64,000 bases of DNA from an uncultured Chloroflexia bacterium (GCA_963792075.1 CAWBUW010000007.1:846429-910428), one strand, 5' to 3'; numbered from the stretch's first letter, positions 9,741 to 43,607 are shown. The notes: generated by a model not told the origin, from the sequence alone. Numbers and translations: made by a program.

Positions 9741-10265
9741 CTAGGCTGCCCGTCCCGCCTTCAGGGAATCTTGTAATTTCTGCAATCCTTCCAGATCCCC
9801 ATTTGCAGCCAGCGCAGCCTGTTGCGGCCAGGTGCCCGGATCTGCGATGCGCGCCAGGCGCTCATCCACCGAGGACAGGAGCGTTTTGATCTCCTCTGGC
9901 TGCATCGCGGCCAATTGAGCGAAGGTGCTCACGCCTTTCTCCTTCAGCACACCCGAAATTCGCGGTCCGATGCCCTCGATCAGGATCAGGTCATCTGGCT
10001 TCACTTCGGCCTGCGGTTCAATTACATCGACGTTTGAAATCGTCGCATGGAGCAAGACTTCCTCAACACGCGCTGGTGCAGCTACAGCGGCCTCCTCATG
10101 GAAAGCATCGGCGTGTTCTTCATGATCACCGTGAACAACGTCATGCTCATCATGGTCGTGGCCAGCCGGGGCGTCTTTAGCGCTTTCTCCCGCGCTGCGC
10201 CGCAGTGCCCACCAAACAACGATGATGATAATAACCAGGGCTACCAAACTCAGAAACACGTCCAT
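9741..10265 (-). CDS. membrane-anchored His/Asp/Glu-rich protein with a C-terminal helix-hairpin-helix-like domain
   Basis: 174-aa ORF with an N-terminal TM helix, an acidic His-rich linker (HDHDEHDVVHGDHEEHADAFHEE), then LILIEGIGPRISGVLKEKGVSTFAQLA, an HhH-type motif. Confidence 0.55.
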   Translation of the reverse strand: MDVFLSLVALVIIIIVVWWALRRSAGESAKDAPAGHDHDEHDVVHGDHEEHADAFHEEAAVAAPARVEEVLLHATISNVDVIEPQAEVKPDDLILIEGIGPRISGVLKEKGVSTFAQLAAMQPEEIKTLLSSVDERLARIADPGTWPQQAALAANGDLEGLQKLQDSLKAGRAA

Positions 10266-10376
10266 CAGATCACTCTCCTTATCAAAGATGATTAGAAATT
10301 CATCTTAATTTTAAACCAAACCGATCAAATGTCAAACAAGCTGAACTCCCAGCTTCCTACTCAGACCTGGAGCATG

Positions 10377-12454: not shown

Positions 12455-12461
12455 GGTATAC

Positions 12462-15161
12462 CTACTGTGTGTTTTCTGATTTAGGATAATGTTCTTCTAC
12501 ACGCAGCAAAGCGCCATAATCCAGTGCCCACACCGCCCTGGCTCCGCCCAGCTCGTTCTTGGGCTGAAACACAAGACTGCGCTGCTTCATGCGGGTCTGC
12601 GCGGCATATCGTAGGCTGGATTGGTGTAAGATCGGCCGCTCGATGGCGTAAAGAAAGCCAATCTGCGCAAGACCGGCGTTGTTCCAGGCAATCACACTGC
12701 CAGGGGCCTTTTCTCCGCCTGGCTGGCGATAATCCAACCCGGCGCCCGTCAACACTTCTAAAAGGGCACGGAGCTGTACATGCTTCAACCCGGCCACGAA
12801 GTCAGCCAGATGGAAAGGATCCTCCGCCAGTTCAGACGCATTTTCCACCAGCGCCGATCGCATTTCTGTTCCTATCCGGAAGGTTTCAGCCATGCGCTTC
12901 ACCTGTACCGCCAGGTCATCTTCTACCGGGGCGACACCGCCTCCCAACAATTCCACCTGCAAATCATCTTCCGGTTCCAGCCGCAATCCCCCCAGGCGCA
13001 GCGTATGCGTCGCGCTCTGATATGCTGCCGAGAGGGTTACCTTTTCACCGTTGACCCATGCCAGCACCTGTTCCACGGGTTGTACCGCATGACAAACCAG
13101 AGTCCACAACCTCTGCGCCGGCAGCAGCCCGGCTTCCCCCTGGGCGGCATGGAGATGGATACGCCGCCCCGGAGGCAGGTGAGACTCTTTTCCATCCAGG
13201 CCCATCTCCCCTGTTTCGATCACGGTCAGTGCGTATTCACCCTGGGCATAGGCCTGGCTCTCGCCATCATCCTCATATAATTCGAAGCGGTTCGCCGCGC
13301 CAGGGAAAATGTGCACTTCCAGCTCGTCTGGGTTTTGAATCCCCCCCCAGCCAACTTCCGGGGCTAGTGGGATAATTGCACCTTCTCTGGCAAAAACCGG
13401 GATATCCACCAGCTTCCCGTAGATCGCATACCAGCAGCCCCCTTCATACGTGCGCCCATCGAAGAAGCCATACCACTTTTCCCTTTCGCCCGGCAGCCAG
13501 ACCACCTGGCGAGCCATACGTGTGTCAGGGTCAGCGGGGGAAGTGAACGGCGCAGCCAGTAACTCCGTACCAAACGTGTACACGTTTGGACTGGCATAGG
13601 CTTCTTCGCACTTAGGCTCCAGGTGATACAGAGGGCGTACCAATGGCAGCCCTTCGCGGTGATCCTTCCAGGCCATGCTGTATAAATACGGGATCATCCG
13701 GTGACGCAGCCGTAGGGCATCACCGGCGGCTTGCTCCACATTGGCGTCAAACCCCCAGGGCCGCCGGTCCTGATATACATTTTTCGTCGAGTGCAGACGT
13801 AGAATTGGGCTGAACACGCCGTACTGCACCCAGCGTGTATACAGCTCGCCATCTTCCATCCCACCCTGGTGCCCGCCGATATCATGACTCCACCAGGAAT
13901 ACCCCACGTTGGCTGCCGTCGCCGTCATATAGGGTTGGAATGCCAGGGAGTCCCAGGTCACCATTGTATCCCCCGAAAAACCAATCGGATAGCGGTGGTT
14001 GCCCAGGCCCCCCCAACGACTGAAAAGGAATGGTCGCTTGATGGGGTCTCGCCCAGCATCCAGGTAATGGAGGTGGTTGATCCACCATAACAAGTTCAGG
14101 CCTGCCAGGCGAGTGGAGTTGCCCTGCTGCCAGTCCATCCACCAGAAATCCACCCCTCCTGCCTCATACGGATGGTGCAGATGTTCAAAATACGCCTGGG
14201 CAAAAACCGGGTCCTCGATGTCGAAGCGGACCGGCTGCTGGCTGGCAGGATCGATCCCCATCGCACTTGCCATTTGTGGGTACATTTCTTCGTGCGGCCA
14301 GATCCCCTCTGATGGGTGCAGGTTTAAGCCCGTCTTCAAGCCCAGCTCATGCAAGGAACGGATGAAACCCGGTGGGTCTGGGAAGAGCTTCCGGTTCCAG
14401 GTGTACCCGGTCCAGCCGCTGCAGCCATTACCTGTTGTGGTAAGATGCCAGTCCATATCAATAATGCACACCCCCAAGGGCACACCATGCTGGCGGAACT
14501 CTTGCATCAAGTTCCCCAATTCTTCTGCCGAATACCCCCAAAAACGACTCCACCAGTTGCCCAGCGCCCAACGTGGCACCAGGCCAGGTTTGCCTGCCAC
14601 GCTGTAAAACTCGGTCATGCCCTGGCGATAATCTTTCCCGTAAACCATGAAATAGAGATCCAGCCCGCCTGGCTGGCGTTCCGTCAGCCAGCCATTTTCA
14701 TCAAATACCAGCGAGCGCGAATCATCGATCACCGTCCAGCCGCGCTTGCTCAACAGGCCTGGCTCGAGCGCAACCGCTCCATCTGCCATATCCAATGTAC
14801 GGGTGGTTCCTAACAGGTTTTCTTTCTGCTCCATCCCATAACGCCATCGCGCCGGCGTGCCCAGCATTTCGATGAAAAGTGATGCTTCGCTGAAAGCCTG
14901 TCCTTCCGCATAATGCAACTGCAGTGCGTCTGTCTGGATGACCAACTCCCCGGCCTCGTGCGCCACCCGGAATGTTGGCACGGGCTGCCGGCGCAGTAGA
15001 AACACCTGAGAAGGGCGATCCTCGAAGATCCCCTGCGCCTGGTATTCCATCCGGATCAGTCGCGCGCTCAACACCGTAAAACGCGCCTGGCCTGATTGCA
15101 CCACAGCTTCAGGTGCAGGTTTTGGTTGTGTATTGAACTGGTAATGTGTTGTCATTGCCAA
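12462..15161 (-). CDS. GH31-family alpha-glycosidase with a ~250-aa C-terminal extension
   Basis: 899-aa ORF with GH31-type motifs: GVDFWWMDWQQG (nucleophile region) and WSHDIGGH (acid/base region). Confidence 0.8.
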   Translation of the reverse strand: MAMTTHYQFNTQPKPAPEAVVQSGQARFTVLSARLIRMEYQAQGIFEDRPSQVFLLRRQPVPTFRVAHEAGELVIQTDALQLHYAEGQAFSEASLFIEMLGTPARWRYGMEQKENLLGTTRTLDMADGAVALEPGLLSKRGWTVIDDSRSLVFDENGWLTERQPGGLDLYFMVYGKDYRQGMTEFYSVAGKPGLVPRWALGNWWSRFWGYSAEELGNLMQEFRQHGVPLGVCIIDMDWHLTTTGNGCSGWTGYTWNRKLFPDPPGFIRSLHELGLKTGLNLHPSEGIWPHEEMYPQMASAMGIDPASQQPVRFDIEDPVFAQAYFEHLHHPYEAGGVDFWWMDWQQGNSTRLAGLNLLWWINHLHYLDAGRDPIKRPFLFSRWGGLGNHRYPIGFSGDTMVTWDSLAFQPYMTATAANVGYSWWSHDIGGHQGGMEDGELYTRWVQYGVFSPILRLHSTKNVYQDRRPWGFDANVEQAAGDALRLRHRMIPYLYSMAWKDHREGLPLVRPLYHLEPKCEEAYASPNVYTFGTELLAAPFTSPADPDTRMARQVVWLPGEREKWYGFFDGRTYEGGCWYAIYGKLVDIPVFAREGAIIPLAPEVGWGGIQNPDELEVHIFPGAANRFELYEDDGESQAYAQGEYALTVIETGEMGLDGKESHLPPGRRIHLHAAQGEAGLLPAQRLWTLVCHAVQPVEQVLAWVNGEKVTLSAAYQSATHTLRLGGLRLEPEDDLQVELLGGGVAPVEDDLAVQVKRMAETFRIGTEMRSALVENASELAEDPFHLADFVAGLKHVQLRALLEVLTGAGLDYRQPGGEKAPGSVIAWNNAGLAQIGFLYAIERPILHQSSLRYAAQTRMKQRSLVFQPKNELGGARAVWALDYGALLRVEEHYPKSENTQ

Positions 15162-15237
15162 CTCGTCGATGTAAGGATTACTGGAATCCCAGCTTCAAGT
15201 ATTTCTCGGCAGACACACCCCTTCCAGCCCAAAAATA

Positions 15238-15438
15238 CTACTCCAACTTCTCGAACACCTGTAGAAATTTCTCATTCTCCATGTGTTCGAATATCTCTTC
15301 AATGGCTGCATCCACGATCAAATCCACTGTATGTTCAACTTCTTGATCATTATTGGCGTCCCAATGGATTCCCATTTTGCTGGCGAGCATACGAAAATAG
15401 TGTACCAGGTAATCTTTGGCTTGTTCACGTTTTTTCAT
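15238..15438 (-). CDS. small acidic hypothetical protein
   Basis: ORF trimmed to MKKREQAKDY behind a GGAGG RBS; 66 aa. No family recognised. Confidence 0.35.
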   Translation of the reverse strand: MKKREQAKDYLVHYFRMLASKMGIHWDANNDQEVEHTVDLIVDAAIEEIFEHMENEKFLQVFEKLE

Positions 15439-15561
15439 AACACCGCCTCCAGGAAAAAACAAGCAGAAATAACCACTACGCTGCCCACTTTTAGAACAAT
15501 GTTCATCTCAGTATAGCATAATTTTGATCGTTACTCAGCCCAGCCGCCATAATTTTAAGGA

Positions 15562-15606
15562 AGGTGGTTCGGCAAGCTGCGTAAAGCGCAGCTTGCCGAA
15601 CCACCT
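15562..15606. terminator. long perfect hairpin downstream of the metallophosphoesterase gene
   Basis: A 20-bp perfect stem aggtggttcggcaagctgcg/cgcagcttgccgaaccacct with a 5-nt loop. Confidence 0.6.
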
Positions 15607-15610
15607 GATT

Positions 15611-16702
15611 TCAATCGAAATCAACCACGATCAACTCTGGCTGACAATACAGGCGCACAGGCGGCGAGGCTGCTCCCAATCCCGCCGAAACGAATAAGTG
15701 CGTTTTATGGATCAGAAAATGCCCTTGTACAAAACGCCGGCCGTAAACCGAAGGGACAATCACCGGTCCAAACCCCGGCAAACGAAATTGCCCTCCGTGG
15801 AAATGCCCGCCAAACACGGCTTGCGGCTGCGCCGGGCTTGCCGCCAGCCGGTAGATATTATCTGGCGTGTGCGTTAGCACGAACAGTGCCTCATCCGCTC
15901 TGGTATGCCATTCCTCCAAGGGCGCCGCGTCGCCCCAGGGAAGCTCATCTCCTGCAAGCGCCAACGCCGGGTGCCCCTCCACGCGTACAACCTTCCCGCC
16001 GATGAAAGTCACCCCCATCCGTTCCATTGTTGCGGTCACTTCCTCCGGTGCCTTTGAACCATCATGGTTGCCCAAGATTGCGAACACCCCCAACCGGGCT
16101 TGCAATCCGCCCAGGGCTGACGGCAGCAGGTTCACATCGGCTTTAGAGGTCATGAAATCGCCCGTAATCACCACCAGGTCAGGCATTTCTGCTGAAGTGC
16201 GCTTTACGACCTCTTGATAATAATCCAACGGCAGTTGGTCAGTGACATGAAAATCTGTCAGGTGGACCACCCGCAATCCCGGTCCTGCCCAACCCGGCAG
16301 CGTCACTCGATAGCGGCTGACGATCAAGTCGGTGGTTGTCACCGCGTGCAGGAATCCACTTTTTTTGCCCTCAACCAGGGCTGGGGTGCTTTGCAGCCGC
16401 TGCCGCAGAAGAACCTGGATCAGCTCACTCATCCCTGTGGCGACCAATACTCCCAGGGGTATGAGCCACCCCCGCCATCCAAACCACTCTTGAGCATAAA
16501 ACCCATAGACCCCGAAACCCACTACGCTCAAGGTGAATACTGTCAGGGTTAAAGCTTTGCGAAGACCCATCAGGCGCATCCGTACCAAAGGCTGGTTCAA
16601 AACCACCGCAAAGAAGGCCAATCCCGCCCACAAAGATACAACTACCAATCCTATGTGCACTGCCAGCCTGACCAGAGTGAAGTCGTAGGTAAATAATAAC
16701 AT
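15611..16702 (-). CDS. membrane-anchored calcineurin-like metallophosphoesterase
   Basis: Motifs VHLTDFH, ITGDF, ILGNHD and GGHFHGG follow N-terminal TM helices. The start was chosen at MLLFTYDF and is uncertain; ATGs at 16789 and 16777 are alternatives. Confidence 0.7.
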   Translation of the reverse strand: MLLFTYDFTLVRLAVHIGLVVVSLWAGLAFFAVVLNQPLVRMRLMGLRKALTLTVFTLSVVGFGVYGFYAQEWFGWRGWLIPLGVLVATGMSELIQVLLRQRLQSTPALVEGKKSGFLHAVTTTDLIVSRYRVTLPGWAGPGLRVVHLTDFHVTDQLPLDYYQEVVKRTSAEMPDLVVITGDFMTSKADVNLLPSALGGLQARLGVFAILGNHDGSKAPEEVTATMERMGVTFIGGKVVRVEGHPALALAGDELPWGDAAPLEEWHTRADEALFVLTHTPDNIYRLAASPAQPQAVFGGHFHGGQFRLPGFGPVIVPSVYGRRFVQGHFLIHKTHLFVSAGLGAASPPVRLYCQPELIVVDFD

Positions 16703-16775
16703 TCTCCTATTGTACCAAGTCTGGAATGTGCTAAACTTAATCAAATGAACCCTGATTCCATTTTCTGGAGCTCCC

Positions 16776-18920
16776 ATGCCACTTTCCACTGCTTACCTCA
16801 TCCGAGAGCCTGTTGAACAAAGAGTCCAAGACCTGTTAGGAAAAATGACCTTGCTGGAAAAAGTGGGTCAGCTCAACCAGGTCAGCAGTTTTGATGAGCC
16901 TTCACGAGCCCTGCTGAAGCAGGGCTTGATCGGTTCCATCCTCAACCTGCCTTCTGCCATCCCTTTGCCCAACCCTGGTCCGGCCGTTGTGATCGAAGCC
17001 TCCAATGCCATCCAACGTATGGCAGTTACCGAAACCCGCCTGGGCATTCCTCTGCTGTTTGGACGTGATGTAATCCATGGTTTCCGCACGATCTTTCCTA
17101 TCCCGCTGGCACAAGCCGCATCGTGGAACCCCGCGGCCGTAGAACGCGGCGCAGCCATCGCTGCTGACGAGGCCACATCTCAGGGTGTCAAGTGGACCTT
17201 CGCTCCCATGCTCGATATAGCCCGCGATCCACGCTGGGGGCGCGTGGCCGAAGGTGCCGGCGAAGACCCCTACCTGTGCTCTGCCATGGCCGGCGCGTAT
17301 GTACACGGCTTCCAGGGCGACGACCTCTCTGATCCCCAGCGTTTGCTGGCTTGTGCCAAGCATTTTGTCGGATACGGCGGCGCAGTGGGCGGAAGGGATT
17401 ACGAATCCGTAGACATGTCCACACGCACGCTGAGCGATGTGTACTTACCTCCCTTCCGCACTGCGGTAGACCAGGGCGTGGCTACCTTGATGGCCGCCTT
17501 CCACGACTTGAATGGCATCCCCATGTCCGCCAACCGCGACTTGCTCACCGACATGCTGCGCTCTGAGTGGGGTTTTAAGGGCTTCGTCGTCTCTGACTGG
17601 CGCTCGATTGGCGAGCTGGTCGAGCATGGCGTCGTCACGGACCTGGCAGGCGCAGCCGAAGCAGGCCTGTTCGCAGGGATAGATATGGATATGGTCGCAG
17701 CCGCTTACCGGCTGCACCTGCCCGAGCTGGTCGAAAAAGGGCATGTGCGAGAGGAACAAATCGATGAGGCCGTACGCCGTATTCTGCGCCTTAAATATTT
17801 GGCCGGCCTGTTCGACAATCCATACACGGATCCGGCACGCCACAAAACCACGCTGCTCAAGCCGGAATACCGCCAGGCTGCCCGTCAATTTGCCCAACAG
17901 ACGATTGTCTTACTTAAGAACGAGAAGCTGCTGCCGATTAACTCGCGTTTCAAAAAAATTGCATTCGTTGGCCCCTTCATTAATTCCCGCGCGGAGCTGC
18001 TTGGAGCCTGGAGCATGGATGGCCGTGCCGAGGATGTCACTCCCATTTCCCAGGCGGTTAGAGAAGTGGCGCCGAAAGGCTGCGAACTGTTTTTCGCGGA
18101 CCAGGTGGATGAAGCACTGCGCCTTGCTCAGCATGTAGACCTGGTGGTTGCCGTCATCGGTGAACACCCCTCCCGTTCAGGTGAAAATCATAATGTAGCT
18201 GACCTCAGCCTGCCATCTGGCCAGCGTCAATTCGTTGAGGCGCTGGCAGAATTGGGTGTGCCCCTGGCATTAGTCGTTCTCGCGGGCCGACCGCTGGCAA
18301 TCACCCGCGAGGCTCGCCTGGCGAATGCCTTGCTCTATGCCTGGCATCCTGGTTCCGAGGGCGGCTACGCCCTCGCTGACCTGCTCTTTGGCCTGGCTTC
18401 CCCCTCCGCCCGCCTGCCCATCACGCTGCCGCGACACACCGGCCAGGTACCCATCTACTATGCGCAAAAACCATCCGGCCGCCCTCTGGGTACCTCCCCC
18501 GAATTTCGCACGCGTTACAATGATCTGGACACCTCCCCGCTCTATCCCTTCGGGTATGGTCTGGGGTATACCACATTTGCCTACAGCAACCTGGCAATCT
18601 CCGAGCCACATATGATCGGCCAAAACGAGATCAGCGTTGATCTCACCAACCAGGGTCCACTTCCTGGCATCGAGACTGTGCAGTTATATTTGCGTGACGT
18701 ACATGCCTCGGTTACTCGCCCGGTGAAAGAGCTAAAAGGATTCCAACGCGTCGAGCTGAAGCCTGGAGAGACCCGTCGCATTACCTTCAACCTGCGCACC
18801 CCTGACCTGGTATTCACCGGTCACAACGACCTGACACGCGTGGAATCCGGTGAATTCCGCCTGTGGCTTGGCTCCAACTCGTCCGAAGGCGTCAGTGGCA
18901 GTTTTGTCTTGGATGTTTAG
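16776..18920 (+). CDS. bglX: GH3 beta-glucosidase
   Basis: 714-aa ORF with LLGKMTLLEKVGQLNQ, GFVVSDW (nucleophile Asp context) and a C-terminal fibronectin-like domain. Confidence 0.9.
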   Translation: MPLSTAYLIREPVEQRVQDLLGKMTLLEKVGQLNQVSSFDEPSRALLKQGLIGSILNLPSAIPLPNPGPAVVIEASNAIQRMAVTETRLGIPLLFGRDVIHGFRTIFPIPLAQAASWNPAAVERGAAIAADEATSQGVKWTFAPMLDIARDPRWGRVAEGAGEDPYLCSAMAGAYVHGFQGDDLSDPQRLLACAKHFVGYGGAVGGRDYESVDMSTRTLSDVYLPPFRTAVDQGVATLMAAFHDLNGIPMSANRDLLTDMLRSEWGFKGFVVSDWRSIGELVEHGVVTDLAGAAEAGLFAGIDMDMVAAAYRLHLPELVEKGHVREEQIDEAVRRILRLKYLAGLFDNPYTDPARHKTTLLKPEYRQAARQFAQQTIVLLKNEKLLPINSRFKKIAFVGPFINSRAELLGAWSMDGRAEDVTPISQAVREVAPKGCELFFADQVDEALRLAQHVDLVVAVIGEHPSRSGENHNVADLSLPSGQRQFVEALAELGVPLALVVLAGRPLAITREARLANALLYAWHPGSEGGYALADLLFGLASPSARLPITLPRHTGQVPIYYAQKPSGRPLGTSPEFRTRYNDLDTSPLYPFGYGLGYTTFAYSNLAISEPHMIGQNEISVDLTNQGPLPGIETVQLYLRDVHASVTRPVKELKGFQRVELKPGETRRITFNLRTPDLVFTGHNDLTRVESGEFRLWLGSNSSEGVSGSFVLDV

Positions 18921-18923
18921 GTC

Positions 18924-20576
18924 TCACACGCCCGCAGCCTTGAAGGCATCCGCCACAATCGCTTGCGCTTCCTCCTGGATCTGGTTCAGGTGATCTTTGC
19001 CCTTAAAGCTTTCGGCATAGATCTTATACACATTCTCGGTTCCGGAAGGCCGCGCCGCGAACCAACCGTTTTCGGTCACTACCTTCAAGCCGCCGATTGC
19101 TGCACCGTTGCACGGCGCGTGAGTCAGCCGTGATGTGATCTTCTCACCCGCCAGTGTCTGCGCCTGCACCATCTCGGGGGACAGGCTGCCCAGAACCTTC
19201 TTCTGAGCCGGGTTGGCGGGAGCATCCATGCGCTCGTAAGCCGAGGCACCGAACTCCGCTTCCAGGTCCTGGTAATGTTCGCCAGGGTCACGCCCCGTCA
19301 CAGCCAGGATTTCAGCAGCCAACAGGTTCAGCAGGATGCCGTCTTTATCCGTCGTCCAGACCGTGCCATCCTTGCGTAAGAACGAGGCTCCCGCGCTCTC
19401 TTCACCCCCAAAGCCCATGCTGCCGCTGACCAACCCGTCCACAAAGAACTTGAAGCCCACCGGCACTTCGCACAGTTTCCGGCCCAGTTTCGCAGCTACA
19501 CGGTCGATCATAGAGCTGGAGACCAGCGTCTTGCCCACCGCTACCTCCGCACCCCAACCTGGCCGGTGTGTGAACAGGTATTGGATAGCTGTGGCCAGGT
19601 AATGGTTCGGGTTCATCAATCCCACCGAGCGCGTCACGATCCCATGCCGGTCGCTGTCCGGGTCATTCCCAAACGCAATATCGAAACGGTCTTTCAATCC
19701 GATCAAGCTGGCCATGGCATACGGTGACGAGCAGTCCATACGGATCTTGCCATCATAGTCTACGGTCATAAAACTGAAGGTGGGGTCAACATATCGGTTC
19801 ACCACCTCAAGCTGCAGCCCGTAGCGCTCGGCAACCGGCGCCCAGTACGCCACCGCCGCGCCGCCCATTGGGTCCACGCCGATCTTCAGCCCGGCAGCCG
19901 CGATCTTTCCCATCTCGATCACATTGCCCAGGTCAGCCACATACGGTGTAATAAAATCATATTCGTGCACCAGCTCGCTCTTCATTGCTTTTTCATAAGG
20001 CTGGCGCTTCACCCCTTGCAATCCCTGCTCCAGAAGCTGGTTCGCCCGGTCCTGGATCGTCCTGGTCGTTCCAGCATCTGCGGGTCCCCCCGACGGTGGG
20101 TTGTACTTAAACCCGCCATCCTCTGGAGGGTTGTGCGATGGGGTGATCACCACCCCATCTGCCAGCCCGCTTTTTCGCCTGCGGTTATAGCTCAAGATGG
20201 CGTGCGAAATCACCGGCGTGGGGGTATAGCCCAATCCAGCCTGGATCATCACCGTCATCCCGTTCGCAGCCAGAACCTCCACCGCGGTGCGCAGTGCAGG
20301 TTCTGAAAGTGCATGCGTGTCCATCCCGATGTAAAGCGGCCCCGTATAACCTTGCCCCTGGCGGTATTCGCATAAAGCCTGGCTTATCGCCAGGATGTGC
20401 GCCTCGTTGAAACTGCCTTTCGTCGAAGAACCCCGGTGCCCGGAGGTGCCGAAAGCCACCCGCTGCTCGCTATTTGCCGGGTCTGGGCTTTGCGTGTAAT
20501 ATGCCGTCACGAGGCGAGGAACATTGACCAACATCTCTTTGGGGGCTATCTTCCCCGCGAATGGATGTGCACACAT
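18924..20576 (-). CDS. pgm: phosphoglucomutase (alpha-D-glucose phosphate-specific)
   Basis: 550-aa ORF with GTSGHRG and the phosphoserine loop [15 protein letters not shown]. It resembles E. coli Pgm along its full length, as recalled. Confidence 0.9.
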
Positions 20577-36689: not shown

Positions 36690-36891
36690 ATTGTGGCATG
36701 CGAAGACGCATGCCACAATCATGGCTATTTCAAGAAAGCTTGACATTTGAGGGGTCTGGGGTTGTAGCAGTGGCAATGCCACTGCTACAACCCCAGTTTT
36801 CGTGAGAAGCCCCTCCCTGGCGCACGCAGTGCGCCAGGGAGGGGTTGGGGTAGGGCTTTGGCGATGGCTTTTTCATTCTTGAAAAAGCCAT
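36690..36891. repeat. four consecutive perfect hairpins
   Basis: 36690-36719 (13-bp stem), 36758-36794 (17-bp stem followed by TTTT, likely the HD-GYP terminator), 36810-36844 (15-bp stem) and 36864-36891 (12-bp stem). Confidence 0.75.
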
Positions 36892-36985: not shown

Positions 36986-37060
36986 TTTTACAATTCGGGG
37001 TGTGGCTCAGCCCGGCTAGAGCGCACGGTTCGGGTCCGTGAGGTCGGAGGTTCAAATCCT
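36986..37060 (+). tRNA. tRNA-Pro (anticodon CGG)
   Basis: Manual cloverleaf. Acceptor stem CGGGGTG/CACCCCG, D-arm GCTC-AGCCCGGCTA-GAGC and anticodon arm CACGG-TTCGGGT-CCGTG. Variable loop AGGTC, T-arm GGAGG-TTCAAAT-CCTCT, discriminator A. Confidence 0.9.
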
Positions 37061-37070
37061 CTCACCCCGA

Positions 37071-37134
37071 CAACCCCCAAGCCGCCCGCCTTCTTAGGCG
37101 GGCGGCGTCACACACGCAGCCCCCAGCCTTCTTA
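37071..37134 (+). repeat. two GC hairpins with identical TTCTTA loops just 3' of tRNA-Pro
   Basis: gccgcccgcc-ttctta-ggcgggcggc (37071-37096) and gcccccagcc-ttctta-ggctgggggc (37109-37134). Confidence 0.7.
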
Positions 37135-37419
37135 GGCTGGGGGCGGAGTGGTGTGGGGGTGGCGGGTGGAGTGCGGCTTTTGCCTGAGCGTTCACGAATG
37201 AGCGCCAAGCGAATGAGTGCGAAGGCAAAAAAGGGGGAGGCTGAGGCTAGGGGGTGAGAGAGAAATTATCTTACCTGGCTCTCTGACGTCTGACACCACA
37301 GCCTGACCAGGTGCATGGCTTCGAAGGGTTGAACCTACCCTGCAACAAAAATTGTCGTTACCCCCTCTCCAGATACAAAATCCATTGCATTTCACCGGCT
37401 TAGCCGGCGCGCTGATTAC

Positions 37420-37442
37420 CGGCAAGCCAGGTCAACCGCAGG
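37420..37442 (+). repeat. REP-like hairpin element, degenerate copy
   Basis: GGTCAAC-CGCAG-GTTGCCC-CTCC. It has one stem mismatch, and CTCC replaces CTAC. Confidence 0.4.
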
Positions 37443-37764
37443 TTGCCCCTCCTGGATGAACCACAAGACACGAACAGCCCACCGGGGCTGTGGAACGTGC
37501 GAACCAACCGAACGAGAATAAGAACCGGCGTGATGTATTGAAAATGCGTGGGCCTGGTTTCTGCTGACCAGGTGCAACAAGAGCGAAGAAGGCGGGCAGC
37601 GCGAAGCGCCGCTGTAACGATGGCGCGCTGTGATTGGGGGGGTTGGCTGGTGCGACGGCTGAAAACGGATAAACCAGATTGAGAAGCCGGGGAGGCTTCC
37701 GAGCCCGGCGAACAAGCGACGGAGCAAACCGAGAAGAAGAACCGGCGCAGGTCAACCACAGGTT

Positions 37765-37787
37765 GGGCAACCGCAAGTTGCCCCTAC
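37765..37787 (+). repeat. REP-like hairpin element (hairpin + CTAC; GTAG + hairpin on the minus strand)
   Basis: GGGCAAC-CGCAA-GTTGCCC-CTAC. Confidence 0.6.
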
Positions 37788-37866
37788 AAGCCGGGAATGT
37801 GATTACCGGCTAAGAAAAAACGGAGTTAGTTTTAGCCTGGGGCATCCTGGCGGGGGTGGCTGTGGA

Positions 37867-38271
37867 TTATGAGAAATCCGGATCCGCGGGATCGGGGGGA
37901 TCCTCGGCTTCGAAGCCTGCGTTGGTGAGATCATCCAACAGGGTGACGGCCTGGCGGATGGCGTTTAGAAGGTCGGATTGGTTGCCGGTCAAGCGGTGTT
38001 CTGTTTCTATAAGCCTGGCAAGGGTGGCGCTGGCTTTGCTGAGCACGGTAAGGGTATTTGCAAGATCGGGGGCGGATTGGCGTTTGATCTTGGAAAGCAA
38101 GCGGGCAATGATGACCCGGAGCATGACGATCTCATTCACCAGGGTATGGGCGGGGTCTTTGATGTCGGTGTCTGTGAAATACTGCTGGTAAAGGCCGTGT
38201 TTCAGGGCGTTGGTGTTGCCTGGCTGTGCTCCACGTCGCTTAGGTGATTTGCTCAAAGTTTTCTTTTTCAT
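37867..38271 (-). CDS. phage-associated basic protein with a GNTNALKHG motif
   Basis: ORF trimmed to MKKKTLSKSPKRRGAQPGNTNALKHGLY. I recall this motif from small phage DNA-binding or packaging proteins, but that is unverified. The C-terminal tail is acidic. Confidence 0.4.
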   Translation of the reverse strand: MKKKTLSKSPKRRGAQPGNTNALKHGLYQQYFTDTDIKDPAHTLVNEIVMLRVIIARLLSKIKRQSAPDLANTLTVLSKASATLARLIETEHRLTGNQSDLLNAIRQAVTLLDDLTNAGFEAEDPPDPADPDFS

Positions 38272-38569
38272 AGGCAAGGCAGGAAGAACAAACCAGGTAA
38301 CGAATGGGGGTAAGGTAATTCTGCTCTGGGTCAAGGATAACGGTAATGATGGCAGCGACGGCGGGAGCGCCACAAACGCAAAGGGGCAAGGGAAAACGCC
38401 GCAGCTTTGCTGTGCCCATACAGGCTTGCCAAGGCTTGCCGGTCTTTGATCGACCGGCAAGAGCTTGACACCTGGGACAGATCATTGAAGCGATATCGGC
38501 GCGCTCTGTGGCTTCGAAGGGCAGCCCGCAAAGCTGGCAGGGCGGGGCTATGATGAATTTGGCGGGCAT
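38240..38569 (-). CDS. Cys-rich zinc-ribbon-like protein
   Basis: The ATG at 38569 shares one nt with the upstream stop (TGATG). It has CQLCG...CPRCQ and CVCG...CSSC pairs. Confidence 0.35.
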   Translation of the reverse strand: MPAKFIIAPPCQLCGLPFEATERADIASMICPRCQALAGRSKTGKPWQACMGTAKLRRFPLPLCVCGAPAVAAIITVILDPEQNYLTPIRYLVCSSCLAYEKENFEQIT

Positions 38570-38892
38570 CAGGCACGGATGCGGCGAAGCCAACGGTACA
38601 TGGTAGACGCGGCAACATTGAAATGCTCGGCCAGGTGGCGGACCGTGGGGGTTTGACCATATGCTTTTTCGTAGCGGCGCAGATAGGCGGTAAGATCGGC
38701 ACTGACGAGGGGGAGCTTGGAGGGATGCATCATGTTGGAAGCGTCTTCTAACAAGATGTTAATAAGCTCATTCAGCCTGGCGGTTGTGGTGATGACAGGA
38801 TCAGAACCGGGGGGTTCTGGGAAAGGTTGACTGCCGGTCAACCCTACAGGGTCAATGCCGTTGACCCTTACGTTTGTTGGGTTGGTGGCCAT
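38569..38892 (-). CDS. HTH DNA-binding protein (excisionase / small-terminase-like HTH)
   Basis: 107 aa; the C-terminal TVRHLAEHFNVAASTMYRWLRR is a helix-turn-helix. Confidence 0.5.
   Translation of the reverse strand: MATNPTNVRVNGIDPVGLTGSQPFPEPPGSDPVITTTARLNELINILLEDASNMMHPSKLPLVSADLTAYLRRYEKAYGQTPTVRHLAEHFNVAASTMYRWLRRIRA
38825..38847 (+). repeat. REP-like hairpin element
   Basis: GGTTGAC-TGCCG-GTCAACC-CTAC, inside the HTH ORF on the antisense strand. Confidence 0.6.
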
Positions 38893-38897
38893 GGGGT

Positions 38898-39371
38898 TTA
38901 TAACTGGTGGTTGTGCTTGATGCCGCTGGAGATGGCGTTCAGCCGGTCGGAGATGGCTGCTTCGTCATCGATCAAGCGGCCATCTGAGTAGTATCTACCG
39001 ATACCATTCAGGCCGTGCACGGAGGCACAATCAGGGCCAATGCCAGGTTGACCGCCGGTCAACCCTACGGCGGCGGCGGTTTCAAGATCAGTGATGATTT
39101 GATCGGTCTCGTCGAGATCACCGAGATCGGACGCGTCGGAAAGGTTGTAATTGTACTCAAGCATTTTCCGGCGGGCGGTGTGCTTGCCCAGGATCAAGCG
39201 GGTGTAATATTTTTTGGTTCCTAGAATTTCATCGAGATTTCGACCGATATCAAACATGACGTTTTCAACCGATGCGATGAAAACGGGGTCATTGGTTGAG
39301 CGGACATCGGCCATGATTTTCTTGGTCACAAAATTGAGGGCATAAGCAAGAGTAAACGGCATGCGCTTCAT
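38898..39371 (-). CDS. hypothetical island protein
   Basis: 157-aa ORF with an AAGGAAAG RBS. No family recognised. Confidence 0.4.
   Translation of the reverse strand: MKRMPFTLAYALNFVTKKIMADVRSTNDPVFIASVENVMFDIGRNLDEILGTKKYYTRLILGKHTARRKMLEYNYNLSDASDLGDLDETDQIITDLETAAAVGLTGGQPGIGPDCASVHGLNGIGRYYSDGRLIDDEAAISDRLNAISSGIKHNHQL
39046..39068 (+). repeat. REP-like hairpin element
   Basis: GGTTGAC-CGCCG-GTCAACC-CTAC. Confidence 0.6.
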
Positions 39372-39513
39372 TTGATCTTTCCTTCCTGGTTCAGGTGTGG
39401 GTTATGGTCGGGTGATGTGGGCAGTTGGTTGAAAAGGTTGGGCAGGGTAAGCTGCTGCTTGGATGAGCGGCGTTTGGTTTTGGGGCGTGATTGCGTTGGT
39501 TGGGTGGGTGTGC

Positions 39514-39882
39514 TCATTGGGGGGGTTCCTTGGTTGACTGCCAGTCAACCCTACCGCCGGTCAACGGTTGACCGGCGACGGTGGCAAGGGATAGGGTTTT
39601 GAACAGATCGTGTAAGGTGCCTGCTCCCCGGCTTAGGATGATGCCGGTAAGGATGGTCCCGACCGCAGGAAGCCTGGAAAGCGGAAGACCGAAGGCGGTG
39701 AACAAGTCCAGGCCAGCAAGGTAGTTGACGAGGGTGGACAATGCCAGGCCAACCAGCAGGGAGAGATAAAACTCTTTGGTGCGTTTGGACGGTTCCCAAA
39801 TGGGCTTGAGGGTTTGTACGCAGGCTTCGAGCAGAAGGGCAAGAACGATCAATTGGGTGAATGTGGGGGTGGATGGTTCCAT
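39514..39882 (-). CDS. small three-TM membrane protein, holin-like
   Basis: 122 aa with three hydrophobic segments and an AAGGA RBS. The phage context makes the holin assignment an inference. Confidence 0.4.
   Translation of the reverse strand: MEPSTPTFTQLIVLALLLEACVQTLKPIWEPSKRTKEFYLSLLVGLALSTLVNYLAGLDLFTAFGLPLSRLPAVGTILTGIILSRGAGTLHDLFKTLSLATVAGQPLTGGRVDWQSTKEPPQ
39532..39554 (+). repeat. REP-like hairpin element
   Basis: GGTTGAC-TGCCA-GTCAACC-CTAC, followed by a second palindrome GGTCAAC-G-GTTGACC. Confidence 0.6.
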
Positions 39883-39915
39883 AAGTTTTTTCCTTTCTGG
39901 GTTGAATGGGTTGAT

Positions 39916-40001
39916 TGACCGGCGGCCAGGTTGATTCCCGGTAAGGCTGGCCGCCGGTCAGGTCAACCAGCCGGTTGACCTGACTACAATTATTCTATAA
40001 T
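39916..40001 (+). promoter_or_regulatory. divergent control region: nested palindromes overlapping a TATAAT promoter facing the terminase gene
   Basis: A 14-bp inverted repeat tgaccggcggccag (39916-39929) / ctggccgccggtca (39947-39960). A palindrome GGTCAACC-AGCC-GGTTGACC (39961-39980) has a 3' half that supplies TTGACC as a -35 box. TATAAT lies at 39996-40001, but the spacer is only 15 nt. Confidence 0.45.
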
Positions 40002-40095
40002 GAGATTGGGTGAAATGCAACAGATTTTGCGCCAGGTTGCCGGCAGTTGACAAATTTTGTTGCAATAAAGGGTCTGTCAGGGTTGAGAGGAACGA

Positions 40096-41601
40096 ATGAG
40101 GAACAAAAAGGTGGGTGCGGGCGCGGTGGCGGGCGACATTCTGCGAATTGGGGGGTGCCTGGAGTTTTGGGCTTTGGCGGGTGGGGTGAAGCTGCGAGAT
40201 TATCAGGTTGAAATCGGAGAAACGCTTGTCCGGGCGGTGTTGGCTCGAGCTGGGGGGAGCTTTGCGGTGATGCTGCCCAGGCAGAGCGGGAAGAATGAGC
40301 TGCAAGCCTGGATCGAGTCTTATCTGCTCTTTCGGCTTCAGATGGCGGGTGGAAGCATGGTGGTGGTTTCACCGACCTGGAAACCGCAAACGATCAACGC
40401 ACAAGACCGGCTTGAGAAGGTTTTGAAGGCTAACCCGGTAAGCGAGCGGAATTGGGGGAAGCGTTCGGGGTTTGTGTACCTGGTGGGGTCTGCGCGCTGT
40501 GCGTTCTTCTCTGGGCAAGAGGGCGCCAACATTGTGGGAGCGACGGCGGGAAGCCTGCTGATGGTGGATGAGGCGCAAGATGTAAGCATTGAAAAGTTCG
40601 ACAAGGACATCTTACCGATGGCTGCAAGCACGAACGCGGTAAGGGTCTTTTGGGGGACGGCCTGGACGGACCGGACTCTACTGGCGAGGGAGATAAGGGC
40701 GGGGAAGGCCTGGGTTTTGACAGGTGAAGATATTGCCAGGTCTGTACCGGCGTATGGGGTTTTCCTGGCTGAGCAGGTAAAGCTGCGAGGGCGGGACAAT
40801 CCGTATGTGAAAACTCAGTTCTTCTGTGAAGAAATAAGTCAGAATTGGGGGATGTTCACAGGGGCGCGGTTAGCCTTGATGGTGGGGGGGCATGAATGGC
40901 TTGATGCGCCCATCGAAGGGGAAGCGTACATTATGACGGTGGACGTGGGCGGGGGGGATGAAAGTAAGGGCGATGGATTAGAGCTTGCTGGGGGGCGGAG
41001 AGATGCGACGGCGGTAACCATTGCCAGGGTGAATTATGGGGGATCCGGAGGGGTAAATCATGGGGGAGTGGATGGGCCGACTTTTGAGGTCGTAAACCGG
41101 GGGGCCTGGTTTGGGTATGGCCAGGCAGAAAACTATGCGAAGATTTCAGCCTTGATTGATTTATGGCATCCGGTAAAGGTGGTGGTGGATGCAACCGGGA
41201 TAGGGGCGGGGCTTTCTGATTTCCTGGTGAAACGGTTCGGAAGGGTGATATCTCCTTTTATCTTTACCAGGGCAAGTAAGAGCGCGTTGGGTTGGGGGTT
41301 CATTGGCCTGGTGGAAACGGGGGGGTTCAAAGAGTACCGGGCGGGGTGCGGAGTGGAGGCGGATGGGATGAGAGAAGAATTTTGGAAGCAAGCCAGGGCG
41401 GTGGAAGCTTACATGATCCCGGGGCCTGGGCGGTTGATGCGATGGCAGGGCATAGCCGGCAATGAAGCGGGCGGGGTAGCGCATGATGATCTGATCGTTT
41501 CTGCTGTGATGGTGGCGGCGGTGAAGGATGATTTCCGGGGGCGGGCGGAAAGTGCGATCATCAGCCCGGAAAGATCAAATTACAAATGGGGGACTTATTA
41601 G
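40096..41601 (+). CDS. terL: phage terminase large subunit
   Basis: 501 aa with Walker A-like PRQSGKN, Walker B LLMVDEAQD, and nuclease-domain acidic motifs (MTVDVGGG, VVVDATGIG, HDDLIVSAV). Confidence 0.75.
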   Translation: MRNKKVGAGAVAGDILRIGGCLEFWALAGGVKLRDYQVEIGETLVRAVLARAGGSFAVMLPRQSGKNELQAWIESYLLFRLQMAGGSMVVVSPTWKPQTINAQDRLEKVLKANPVSERNWGKRSGFVYLVGSARCAFFSGQEGANIVGATAGSLLMVDEAQDVSIEKFDKDILPMAASTNAVRVFWGTAWTDRTLLAREIRAGKAWVLTGEDIARSVPAYGVFLAEQVKLRGRDNPYVKTQFFCEEISQNWGMFTGARLALMVGGHEWLDAPIEGEAYIMTVDVGGGDESKGDGLELAGGRRDATAVTIARVNYGGSGGVNHGGVDGPTFEVVNRGAWFGYGQAENYAKISALIDLWHPVKVVVDATGIGAGLSDFLVKRFGRVISPFIFTRASKSALGWGFIGLVETGGFKEYRAGCGVEADGMREEFWKQARAVEAYMIPGPGRLMRWQGIAGNEAGGVAHDDLIVSAVMVAAVKDDFRGRAESAIISPERSNYKWGTY

Positions 41602-41616
41602 CTGAGCAATAAAGCG

Positions 41617-41653
41617 CCGTCCGGCTGGATGTCCCCCTCATCCAGCCGGACGG
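41617..41653 (+). terminator. hairpin terminator after terL
   Basis: A 14-bp stem ccgtccggctggat/atccagccggacgg with a T-rich tail. Confidence 0.6.
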
Positions 41654-41944
41654 ACAACTTGATTTTAGCACAAATTCGTGAGTTAGACAATTTTTGTTGT
41701 ACGATCGGGGCTTAGATTGCAATTTCTATTGACAGGGCGCCTTCTCGCTGTTTGCTCTTTCCGGGGGGTGGTTGGGCGGGGGTTCAAGAATGCCGGAGAT
41801 CGGGAGGCGCTTTGCGCCGACCGAACGTAGGCAAAGGCGGGATGGGTGCTCTTGGGCGCCAACCGCCGGGAGCGTAGCGACCGGGGGAGGCGGAACAGCA
41901 TAACCCAGGGCGATGAGTGGCGGAAGGGGGAAGCAGGGAGAGCT

Positions 41945-41967
41945 GGGCAGCTGCAAGCTGCCCCTAC
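41945..41967 (+). repeat. REP-like hairpin element
   Basis: GGGCAGC-TGCAA-GCTGCCC-CTAC. Confidence 0.6.
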
Positions 41968-42726
41968 CTGGGCTGGGGAAGCGGGGGGTTTGGGGGCTTC
42001 CCCCATGAAAACTCTTGCCTGCCGGGAAGCGGCCCGCAGGCGTAGCCGGAGGGGAAAGCGTCGGCAGGTGCGAAGGGGGATTGTGGGCTGGTGTTCGGCG
42101 GGGGTAAGTCCGCTGGCGTTCTTTGCCAACGCCCCCGCCGATTTCTTGCACCAGCCCACCCCACAAGCATTACAATGCTTTCTTTGGTTTGCGGCTGGCA
42201 GGCTGGGGAACACTGCGAGCAGGCGGGCGAACAATCAACGAGACGGCTGGGGGAAAGGACCATGGCGCCGGGGCGGGCGAACAATCAACGAGACGGCAGG
42301 GGGAAAGAGACCGGCGCCGGAGCCGGGGCTGCCTGGCTTCCTGCAGCGCTCTGGCCTGGCGTGGCTGCCTGGCTTGCGCGGATCCGCGTGGGTCAAAGGC
42401 TGCTCAACCTGGTGGGCTGCCTGGCTGCTGTGCGCTGACCTGGTGCGCCTGGCTGCTGAGCTGGCCTGCTGCGCGCTGGCCTGGCTGCTGATCACCGGCC
42501 TGGTGGCTGCCTTCAGCTCGTGGCTGCCTTCAGCTCGTGGCTGCCTGGCTGCTCAATGGCTGCTCAACCTGGTGCGCGCTGGCCTGGCCTGGCTGCGGAT
42601 CACCGGCGAGGTTCAGCGCGCTGCAGCACGTGGGGCTGGCTGCTCAACCTGGTGCCTGGCCTGGTGGCTGCCTGGCTGCGATCCCTGGGCTGGTGGCTGC
42701 CTTCAGCTCGTGGCTGCCTGGCTCTG

Positions 42727-42749
42727 GGTAAACCGCCGGTTTACCCTAC
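42727..42749 (+). repeat. REP-like hairpin element
   Basis: GGTAAAC-CGCCG-GTTTACC-CTAC. Confidence 0.6.
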
Positions 42750-43222
42750 AATGGCTGCTCAACCTGGTGCGCGCTGGCCTGGCCTGGCTGCTGATCACCG
42801 GCCTGGTGGCTGTCGGGAATTGAATCACCGGCAAGGTTCAGCGCGCGGAGATCTGCGTATCTTTGGCGCCCAGCGCTGCACGCTGCGGTTCTTTCCTGGG
42901 GGTGGGTGGGCGGGTCCTGGGGGTGTGGGGGAAGCGAAGCGACCGGAAGCGGAGCGACCGGGGCGCGGAGCTTTCACCACTGGAAAACCACCTCCCGGCC
43001 TGGCTGCCCTCCCTGGACTGGCTGGCCTGGCTGCTGATCACCTGGTTTCTGTTGGCCTGGCTGCTGCTGGCGCTGCCGGCGCGCTGGCCATCGGCCTGGC
43101 TGCCCTCCCTGGCCTGGCTGGTTCTCTTGGCCTGGCTGGTTTTATTGGCCTGGCTGGGCTTCCCGGCCTGGCTGCTGCTGGCCTGGACCCGGGCGCTGTT
43201 TCCATCGACGTGCAAGATTTTT

Positions 43223-43274
43223 TGTGAAGGTCAGCGCATTGGCCACGATATTGTTCAGGGCGATGGCGATCTTT
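43223..43274 (-). repeat. 52-bp perfect inverted copy of the histidine-kinase N-box coding segment (35565-35616)
   Basis: tgtgaaggtcagcgcattggccacgatattgttcagggcgatggcgatcttt is the exact reverse complement of 35565-35616. The ORF track shows the same peptide (CEGQRIGHDIVQGDGDL) in both places. Confidence 0.95.
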
Positions 43275-43283
43275 AGGTAAAAA

Positions 43284-43313
43284 TCCGTGAGGTCGGAGGT
43301 TCAAATCCTCTCA
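43284..43313 (+). repeat. partial tRNA-Pro copy (30 bp; att-like)
   Basis: tccgtgaggtcggaggttcaaatcctctca is identical to 37025-37054. Confidence 0.9.
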
Positions 43314-43581
43314 AAACCGGCCACCCCCGCATTTTTTTTTGTGCGCCGACGCCTGCGGCGGCGCACCAGCCGCCCACACGTGGGCGGCGTTCTGGGCGGG
43401 CACATGTGCCCGCAATCTTGCGCCTGGCTGAACTTTGACAAAGACCCGACTCCGGCGGCTTCCGCCTTCGGCGGGCGGTTCTTCCACCCTTCTTTTTCTA
43501 AGAAAAAGAAAGACTGCCAACAGTGTGGCTTTGACAACCGATAATGGTAACGGCTCGCCTGGGCTGCACCACTCCCCCCAA

Positions 43582-43607
43582 GAGGTTCAAATCCTCTCAC
43601 CCCGACA
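43582..43607 (+). repeat. partial tRNA-Pro 3' end copy (26 bp; distal att, probable ancestral tRNA end)
   Basis: gaggttcaaatcctctcaccccgaca is identical to 37037-37062. Confidence 0.9.

Follow-up and report, generated by a model that had tools for sequence, protein, structure and literature searches.

A 64-kb stretch of DNA from an uncultured Chloroflexia bacterium (GCA_963792075.1 CAWBUW010000007.1:846429-910428), whose whole length we call the window, carries eight tagged units and one degenerate copy, i.e., eight or nine copies of a 23-base hairpin, all of them inside a 6.5-kb island (37047..43607) that adjoins a proline tRNA gene. Read on the - strand, the most economical description of a unit is the tag GTAG, an 8-bp stem and a 3-nt KGC loop (GGC or TGC), 23 nt in all. 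We put the chances at about even that these units, carried by a decayed prophage, are a private sub-family of the GTAG-tagged hairpins known as repetitive extragenic palindromes (REPs), which act as single-stranded DNA (ssDNA), and that they were multiplied by a REP-associated transposase (RAYT, or TnpA-REP) type of enzyme acting in trans. Elements of this kind are known; what is new is this member, together with its uniform orientation and its occurrence in phage DNA only.

The window was scanned with the exact pattern GGNNNNCNNNNNGNNNNCCCTAC, i.e., GGNNNNC-N5-GNNNNCC-CTAC, in which the four inner stem positions are left free. Six matches were obtained, all on the + strand, at 37765, 38825, 39046, 39532, 41945 and 42727, exactly where a preliminary description of this DNA had placed six full copies; 100 dinucleotide shuffles gave a mean of 0.12 matches and a maximum of one. 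Although the pattern left the inner pairs free, all six copies are fully complementary (chance about 1/256 for each). Among the perfect hairpins of the window that have a 7-bp stem and a 5-nt loop, the most frequent 4-nt tail is CTAC, which occurs six times, on the + strand only and in the island only. Two further units were found, a full one at 38849-38871 (GGGTCAA-TGCCG-TTGACCC-TTAC), one base past the 38825 unit, and a long-stem one at 39958-39987 (TCAGGTCAACC-AGCC-GGTTGACCTGA-CTAC), and the degenerate copy that had been mentioned could be located at 37430-37452.

A covariance model was built from the seven 23-nt units and run unfiltered over the whole 64 kb. Scores were 32-37 bits for the seven units, 20.6 bits for the degenerate copy and 17.8 bits for the long-stem unit. 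In the rest of the window (~57 kb), outside 37430-42749, there was no match, the best score being 11 bits (E about 3), which bears out the proposed confinement to the island. The seven aligned units comprise five distinct stems. All 49 of their 49 stem cells are paired and five of the seven pairs have changed on both sides, so that the description of different stems with complete complementarity was accurate; the observed covariation score was reached by none of 500 shuffles, and slid controls pair at <=51%. Folded as ssDNA, the units form perfect stems of 7-9 bp with loops of 3-5 nt, at -8 to -10 kcal/mol per unit. The outermost loop bases also pair in most units, which makes an 8-bp stem with a 3-nt loop the better description, and in seven of the eight units, each 23 nt long, GTAG stands directly 5' of a perfect stem and a loop of these sizes. 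The tag is GTAG in seven units and GTAA in one, always on the - strand, with no tag on the other. All eight tagged units share one orientation (two-sided binomial P ~0.008), as had been observed for the copies first listed; the island units include one head-to-tail tandem and no inverted doublets.

Unit 1 (37765..37787, - strand, 34.4 bits) reads GTAG-GGGCAAC-TTGCG-GTTGCCC; its + strand form, GGGCAAC-CGCAA-GTTGCCC-CTAC, is an exact pattern match, and it lies in non-coding DNA between promoter-like module P1 (37341-37396, + strand; TGCAACAAAAATTGTC...GCAAAAT...TTGCATTTCACC) and a small-terminase-like (TerS-like) gene. The degenerate copy (37430..37452, - strand, 20.6 bits, E 0.02) reads GGTCAACCGCAGGTTGCCCCTCC on the + strand; in comparison with 37748-37787, a segment of 15 nt flanked by GTTG direct repeats is missing from it, and CTCC stands in place of the usual tail. 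Unit 2, GTAG-GGTTGAC-CGGCA-GTCAACC (38825..38847, - strand, 36.7 bits), and unit 3, GTAA-GGGTCAA-CGGCA-TTGACCC (38849..38871, - strand, 32.1 bits), form the head-to-tail tandem; unit 3, whose variant tag is TTAC on the + strand, was missing from the first list. Units 4 and 5, also given on the - strand, are GTAG-GGTTGACC-GGC-GGTCAACC (39046..39068, 36.1 bits) and GTAG-GGTTGACT-GGC-AGTCAACC (39532..39554, 36.5 bits). Unit 5 adjoins an untagged perfect palindrome (39555..39577) that carries the GTCAAC/GTTGAC core of the unit with its arms swapped. The long-stem unit 6, GTAG-TCAGGTCAACC-GGCT-GGTTGACCTGA (39958..39987, - strand, 17.8 bits), occupies the leader downstream of promoter-like module P2 (40009-40064, - strand), which fits a sigma-70-like -35/-10 arrangement (site 40053-40024), and is followed by a second hairpin at 39919-39957. 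Unit 7, GTAG-GGGCAGCT-TGC-AGCTGCCC (41945..41967, - strand, 33.3 bits), is in non-coding DNA downstream of a large-terminase-like (TerL-like) gene, and unit 8, GTAG-GGTAAACC-GGC-GGTTTACC (42727..42749, - strand, 34.1 bits), is in a tandem-repeat region, within a + strand open reading frame (ORF; 42520-43227) that is probably a pseudogene. The untagged GC-rich palindromes that abut tagged units, at 39919-39957 (CCGGCGGCCAG...CTGGCCGCCGG) and 39555-39577 (CGCCGGTCAAC-G-GTTGACCGGCG), recall the GTAG-23 units of Thermomicrobium roseum, which are reported inside CCGSSCC...GGSSCGG palindromes.

It had been argued from these features that selection acts on a folded single strand rather than on a duplex binding site. 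This holds in part: the compensatory stems and the asymmetric tail fit a folded strand better, but correction of palindromes could also keep the stems perfect. As duplex elements, the units would be palindromic operators bound by a dimeric protein that the island itself encodes, for instance the 107-aa helix-turn-helix (HTH) protein, and GGTTGAC-N5-GTCAACC does occur three times, with a related dyad just downstream of P2. Four half-sites with compensatory changes would, however, require four specificities, there is no symmetry in the conserved tail and loop, and most sites lie within ORFs or distant from the promoter-like modules. The same architecture is moreover present in unrelated contigs that lack this HTH protein, and we regard operators as highly improbable.

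The layout of a GTAG tag followed by a palindrome had been likened to REPs, and it does match published GTAG REPs (PMC3733652), especially those of Stenotrophomonas group 3 (PMC8266576). GTAG-tagged REPs fall into 24 families, with stems of 5-13 bp and mostly short loops (Di Nocera et al., PMC3733652). These include sub-families with complementary changes, occasional intragenic copies and members in Chloroflexi, and the T. roseum family is clustered at few loci (PMC3733652). The group-3 REP of Stenotrophomonas consists of 23 nt, i.e., GTAG, an 8-bp perfect palindrome and a 3-nt loop (Corneloup et al., PMC8266576); TnpA-REP acts solely on the single-stranded GTAG form and cleaves at CT, and the GTAG, the perfect stem and one loop base all matter to it (PMC8266576). 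The S. maltophilia elements of this group (REPSm/SMAG; GTAG families 6-9) resemble the window units in their 23-nt architecture and in their complementary-change sub-families (PMC8266576; PMC3733652), and the folded GTAG strand is their recognised form (PMC8266576). They differ in that hundreds of copies, mainly extragenic and dimeric, are spread over the genome and that REPs flank the cognate RAYT, whereas the window has eight or nine copies in one island and one orientation, several of them in ORFs, with no RAYT in the window; the loop is KGC here and GCT in Stenotrophomonas. GTAG REPs are typically dispersed in tens to thousands of copies, mostly as extragenic inverted dimers (REPIN/BIME), and the cognate RAYT (PF01797) is usually flanked by REPs. 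The window units, by contrast, are co-oriented and do not form inverted pairs.

The T. roseum GTAG-23 elements, compared by description and not by consensus, are also GTAG-tagged, are probably of the same phylum (Chloroflexi) and likewise cluster at few loci with other GC-rich palindromes; they differ in forming clustered dimers or groups rather than co-oriented singletons, and a phage context is unreported for them. The subterminal hairpins of IS200/IS605 share the 5' tetranucleotide next to a hairpin; a Y1 HUH enzyme reads them on one strand only, and their insertion is tied to ssDNA at the replication fork. In contrast to these elements, or to palindrome-associated transposable elements (PATEs), the window has no tnpA/tnpB and no paired ends enclosing a gene, and its hairpins are perfect and unpaired, not imperfect.

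Predicted ORFs overlap four units, two at ORF termini and one in the likely pseudogene, with only the 39046 copy deep inside. Unit 2 encodes V16-GLTGSQP, residues 16-23 of the 107-aa HTH ORF (38569-38892, - strand); together with unit 3 it lies within the first 25 codons, upstream of an alternative Met54, and it would be extragenic if Met54 were the true HTH start. Unit 4, in the same frame as unit 2, encodes V102-GLTGGQP, residues 102-109 of a 157-aa orphan ORF (38898-39371, - strand). Unit 5 encodes GRVDWQST in another frame, in the last 13 codons of a 122-aa membrane-protein ORF (39514-39882, - strand) and past the part of that protein that matches PHROG. The reading frames thus agree with the initial account of three copies in - strand ORFs, the 39532 copy in a different frame from the others; two of the three, at ORF ends, may be effectively extragenic. 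Given that the same 23-mer occurs in two reading frames, a leader and non-coding DNA, a coding motif was rejected as the primary explanation, and conservation is, as had been proposed, at the nucleotide and not the protein level. No homologues of the 157-aa and 107-aa proteins were found among 5.8 billion proteins; since the ORFs that host VGLTG(G/S)QP have none, conservation of this peptide elsewhere cannot arise as an argument against the hairpins. An exhaustive HMMER search returned two weak TPR_12-type matches of the 157-aa orphan to proteins of ~1000 aa (E 2e-6, significant for the library searched, and 2.5e-4), and the octapeptide encoded by the hairpin sits at a regular position of these repeats, which resemble tetratricopeptide repeats (TPR-like).

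Evidence for an insertion comes from unit 8. The repeats 42476-42620 and 42666-42815 have near-identical left (~54 nt) and right (~55 nt) flanks. What lies between them is, in one repeat, a 17-nt tandem unit and GGCTGCT and, in the other, GGCTCTG and the entire 42727 hairpin. A unit-sized block (~22-23 nt) is present in one repeat and absent from its paralogue, with two or three substitutions blurring the junction, and on this alignment the repeat with unit 8 acts as the filled site and its paralogue 42476-42620 as the empty one.

By analogy with characterised REPs, the GTAG modules would serve to fold as ssDNA and would have been multiplied by a Y1/HUH enzyme of the RAYT class, which would bind the folded GTAG strand and then cut and join it nearby. 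The enzyme may have come in trans from elsewhere in the genome or from the former phage host. The units would now be inactive passengers in a decayed prophage at tRNA-Pro, and in or beside genes only in-frame or terminal copies would have persisted.

An alternative is that the palindromes arose and stayed perfect locally. As the phage replicated, template switching, slippage and gene conversion would have copied and corrected short quasi-palindromes of the island with the core GGTCAACC/GGTTGACC; units that look alike and seem to covary would then result without selection for a folded molecule. In line with this, the GTCAAC/GTTGAC core occurs in several arm-swapped arrangements within 600 bp (39555-39577, 39958-39983, 37430 and 37750), the degenerate copy differs from unit 1 by loss of the 15 nt noted above, three units within 710 bp are identical at 21-22 of 23 positions, the region is rich in tandem and slipped repeats, and the 39046 copy leaves the length of the TPR-like alignment unchanged. 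A local origin nevertheless leaves unexplained the invariant asymmetric CTAC tail and the common loop pattern on four stems over 5 kb, the recurrence of tag, closing pairs and loops in viral contigs that are unrelated, and the match to an experimentally defined RAYT substrate. We therefore hold it to be unlikely.

The island that holds all units is delimited by two identical 26-nt copies of the 3' end of tRNA-Pro(CGG), which form a direct repeat (37047-37072 and 43582-43607). Its - strand genes encode a TerS-like protein, a Zn-ribbon protein, the HTH protein, the 157-aa orphan and the small membrane protein; its + strand has the TerL-like gene followed by repeat-rich non-coding or pseudogene DNA. 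Replication genes are absent from the island. It also lacks an integrase, and for this reason we describe it as a decayed prophage. A third att-type copy at 43296-43321, 286 nt before attR, is 73% similar and has a different acceptor end, which suggests tandem or successive integrations.

The TerL of the island belongs to a very common family, with 1982 proteins at E <= 1e-20; relatives at 45-50% identity are numerous, and the named ones come from metagenome-assembled genomes (MAGs) of Chloroflexi, Anaerolineaceae or Anaerolineales, which makes a host from this phylum probable. A comparison set of ~88 kb at 39-50% TerL identity was assembled from three IMG/VR contigs (L076-L078) and Chloroflexi/Anaerolineae MAG loci (L085-L088). 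No comparable hairpin family is present in these ~88 kb, a single similar hairpin occurring in L077. A conserved phage signal was rejected on this ground; the TerL relatives being essentially without hairpins, we take the units for acquired passengers. In Chloroflexi-type chromosomes (L085, L086 and L087, around 10001-20000) this TerL family heads compact clusters of ~10 kb with capsid, portal-like and adaptor genes and without integrase or replication genes, reminiscent of clusters resembling gene transfer agents (GTA-like) or of domesticated head-gene clusters.

The architecture itself is more widespread. Viral contigs scanned with GGNNNACNGCNNGTNNNCCCTAC, in which three pairs are left free, yielded 72 loci, most of them with perfectly complementary hairpins. 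The commonest unit is GGGCGACC-GCC-GGTCGCCC-CTAC (GTAG-GGGCGACC-GGC-GGTCGCCC on the GTAG strand), and ~40 further covarying stems occur between the GGG...CCC-CTAC ends, with GCC or GCA loops on the CTAC strand; one of these units, in L024, differs from unit 1 in the loop alone. An inverted doublet, GTAG-GGGCGCA-TGGCR-TGCGCCC-(6-7 nt)-GGGCGAC-CRCCG-GTCGCCC-CTAC, is frequent and has the head-to-head arrangement of REPINs/BIMEs. About twenty units occur in 32 kb of a Mu-like phage contig (IMGVR_UViG_3300013125_000682; loci L034, L017 and L062) that has MuA- and MuB-type PHROG matches, where the hairpins are mostly inverted doublets placed directly after stop codons. The loci L017:284 and L034:13044 have common flanks and the stems GGGCGAC/GTCGCCC and GGGCGGC/GCCGCCC, respectively, which amounts to a compensatory change. 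Among the single-mismatch copies of this superfamily there are nine A.C/C.A and two G.T/T.G mismatches on the CTAC strand (small numbers, not fully independent), and the wobble pairs therefore fall on the GTAG strand, which is the one bound by RAYTs. Overlaps between related IMG/VR contigs, compared for presence/absence polymorphism, were 100% identical.

These viral hairpins, e.g., those of IMGVR_UViG_3300013125_000682, resemble the window units in tag, GG/CC closing pairs, 8-bp stems, GCC/GCA loops and residence in phage DNA. They differ in being mostly inverted doublets of ~55 nt, with the two orientations equal (59 vs 52) and with GGGCG-rich stems. The GGTTGAC type of the window was not found in viral contigs, in 185,579 species genomes (a collection that does not include the source genome) or in JGI metagenomes, apart from isolated, chance-like matches with other loops (three unrelated single ones in species genomes and six in metagenomes); its stem and the GGTAAAC stem have no other occurrence in the viral contigs, species genomes and metagenomes scanned. 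A Logan contig of 2,090 bp is identical to 37043-39132. Cultured phages contain nothing that resembles the island or the IMG/VR doublet.

Several observations weigh against a RAYT-mobilised REP family. The absence of units from ~57 kb of flanking chromosome is atypical for REPs, as is the co-orientation of eight units with no inverted doublets. Head-to-tail pairs are rare in the described GTAG families (PMC3733652), and mobile elements in Pseudomonas are REP deserts, the opposite pattern (PMC3390384). Searches by tblastn and phmmer revealed no Y1/HUH (RAYT, IS200-like) gene in the 64-kb window, as the preliminary description had also noted, or in ~0.7 Mb of other loci; the queries were E. coli TnpA-REP (identical to PDB 4ER8) and an unverified IS200 TnpA sequence, with which divergent Y1 enzymes could be missed. 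Next to unit 8, the GTAG strand has no evident CT dinucleotide at which cleavage would occur. Should the G-rich + strand serve as lagging-strand template, GTAG would lie on the strand opposite to that expected in the simplest IS608-type case. Selection for folding is not the only process that maintains perfect stems, since palindrome correction by template switching or gene conversion can do so as well. The VGLTGGQP encoded at 39046 lines up, without a gap, with the 'AL.G.EK.LG' stretch of the TPR-like repeats, which is awkward for a simple net insertion of 24 nt, since such an insertion should disturb the alignment.

The + strand has an extreme GC skew of +0.23 to +0.42 (37500-42000), across both the - strand genes and the + strand terL. 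Measured on coding strands, terL has a skew of +0.39, and the - strand genes have skews of -0.13 to -0.28. The island differs in sign from the chromosome on its flanks (about -0.1). Values of 0 to about 0.2 were obtained for chromosomal genes nearby and for terL relatives, and the skew of the island is much larger than that of the latter (0 to 0.18). The AT skew of the island is near zero, and simple C-to-T deamination is therefore no explanation of the GC skew. The hairpin-CTAC form is always on the G-rich strand, and across divergent transcription units both the skew and the orientation follow the DNA rather than transcription.

Because hairpins and skew share this polarity, we considered whether the units are single-strand initiation (ssi) sites for priming, or other polarity signals, of the former phage, with the hairpin on the displaced G-rich strand and a CTA/TTA start read by primase. 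All eight units are of the hairpin-CTAC type on the G-rich strand, across divergent transcription units, and their tails contain CTA in seven cases and TTA in one; Firmicute-type DnaG primases prefer the trinucleotides CTA and TTA. The layout is also that of stem-loop I in the complementary-strand origin of phage G4 (GGACGGCG-AAAGC-CGCCGTCC-CTAC-TG), in which the template strand has a GG-stem-loop-stem-CC directly followed by CTAC and the annotated primer starts just 3', 1 nt after CTAC, and which acts as a folded, strictly strand-specific ssDNA. G4 differs in that its genome has a single such origin, which comprises three hairpins and at which E. coli primase reads CTG, whereas the window has eight or nine sites over 5.3 kb and no CTG after the tail; the likeness is one of sequence layout and concerns a single example. 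Eight signals in 5 kb, some of them intragenic, are unlike known ssi sites (1-3 per replicon), and the island is without replication genes. In the IMG/VR superfamily, unit orientation has no relation to local GC skew (mean 0.000; 26 of 50 values positive), and half of the units are in inverted doublets, so that polarity is no general property of the family. Priming signals thus appear distinctly improbable. In the G4 oric (NC_001420 3970-3998), whose stem-loop I is laid out like GTAG REPs seen on their complementary strand, the primer RNA beginning AGUAGGG... is itself a GUAG-tagged hairpin.

The units could also be RNA cis elements on island transcripts, such as 3'-5' exonuclease barriers, processing sites, attenuators or protein-binding hairpins, as has been proposed for many REPs. 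Units 2-6 lie in the transcript predicted from P2 (40053-40024, - strand), unit 6 in its leader, and the superfamily wobble bias favours the GTAG strand, here the sense strand of the - strand operon. Furthermore, most GTAG REPs are located 3' of genes, and their transcription is assumed (PMC3733652). The orientation, however, is constant on the DNA and not with respect to transcription, with unit 1 in the + strand transcript predicted from P1 and units 7-8 past the + strand TerL-like gene. No copy ends in a U-run, and related elements that should need the same regulation do without hairpins, the L077 one excepted. The units match no Rfam family at gathering or permissive thresholds; with Rfam 15, only tRNA-Pro matched within the island, and matches elsewhere were weak (E >= 0.5). 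RNA elements are quite unlikely on balance. Intrinsic terminators were rejected separately, given that the CTAC tails are followed by mixed sequence without a U-run and that a scan flagged only 38848-38868 as terminator-like.

A variant of the REP interpretation is that the units belong to a phage-resident lineage of REP-like GTAG hairpins, their strict co-orientation on a strongly skewed strand stemming from insertion into, or use by (e.g., G4-like priming on the displaced strand), a single-stranded replication intermediate of the phage. We think this unlikely. If it were true, phages and their remnants would be both vehicle and habitat, which would contradict the view of REPs and REPINs as vertically inherited chromosomal residents. 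According to the usual description, GTAG REPs reside with their RAYT partners in the chromosome, are inherited vertically and do not occur in DNA of recent acquisition. That pattern is inverted here, with a REP 'oasis' in a decayed prophage, the remainder of the 64 kb REP-free, and uncultured Mu-like phage contigs saturated with related doublets. Should the phage-only pattern hold genome-wide, phages are carriers of REP-type hairpins and may also pass them from host to host, and the co-oriented copies on a skewed island would be a natural test of single-strand-specific insertion versus replication polarity. Should the genome instead have a RAYT and many copies, the units would simply be a new REP family in a Chloroflexi-type bacterium.

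Other features were seen in and around the island. A third promoter-like module, P3 (41662-41708, - strand), also fits a sigma-70-like -35/-10 arrangement. P1 is inverted relative to P2, so that the two form inverted repeats flanking the - strand gene block, and each is followed by CAGGTCAACC..GGTTG. The segment 42200-43230 consists of dense tandem repeats, including a 50-nt unit in two copies (42222-42320) and a 17-nt unit in 2.6 copies (42503-42546). Its 9/18-nt GGCCTGGCT repeats encode collagen-like G-L-A/G-L-P triplets in the + strand ORF 42520-43227, which is probably a decayed tail-fibre gene, and an E. coli Chi octamer, GCTGGTGG, lies near 42690. Upstream of the tRNA-Pro promoter, 36756-36796 is a perfect palindrome with 20-bp arms, CTGGGGTTGTAGCAGTGGCA-A-TGCCACTGCTACAACCCCAG. 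With the TTTT that comes next, it makes a strong hairpin resembling a bidirectional terminator; it has GTAG...CTAC by symmetry and is no member of the family. Elsewhere in the window, two c-di-GMP-I riboswitch aptamers stand in tandem on the + strand, at 9465-9541 (37.6 bits) and 9578-9675 (75.8 bits).

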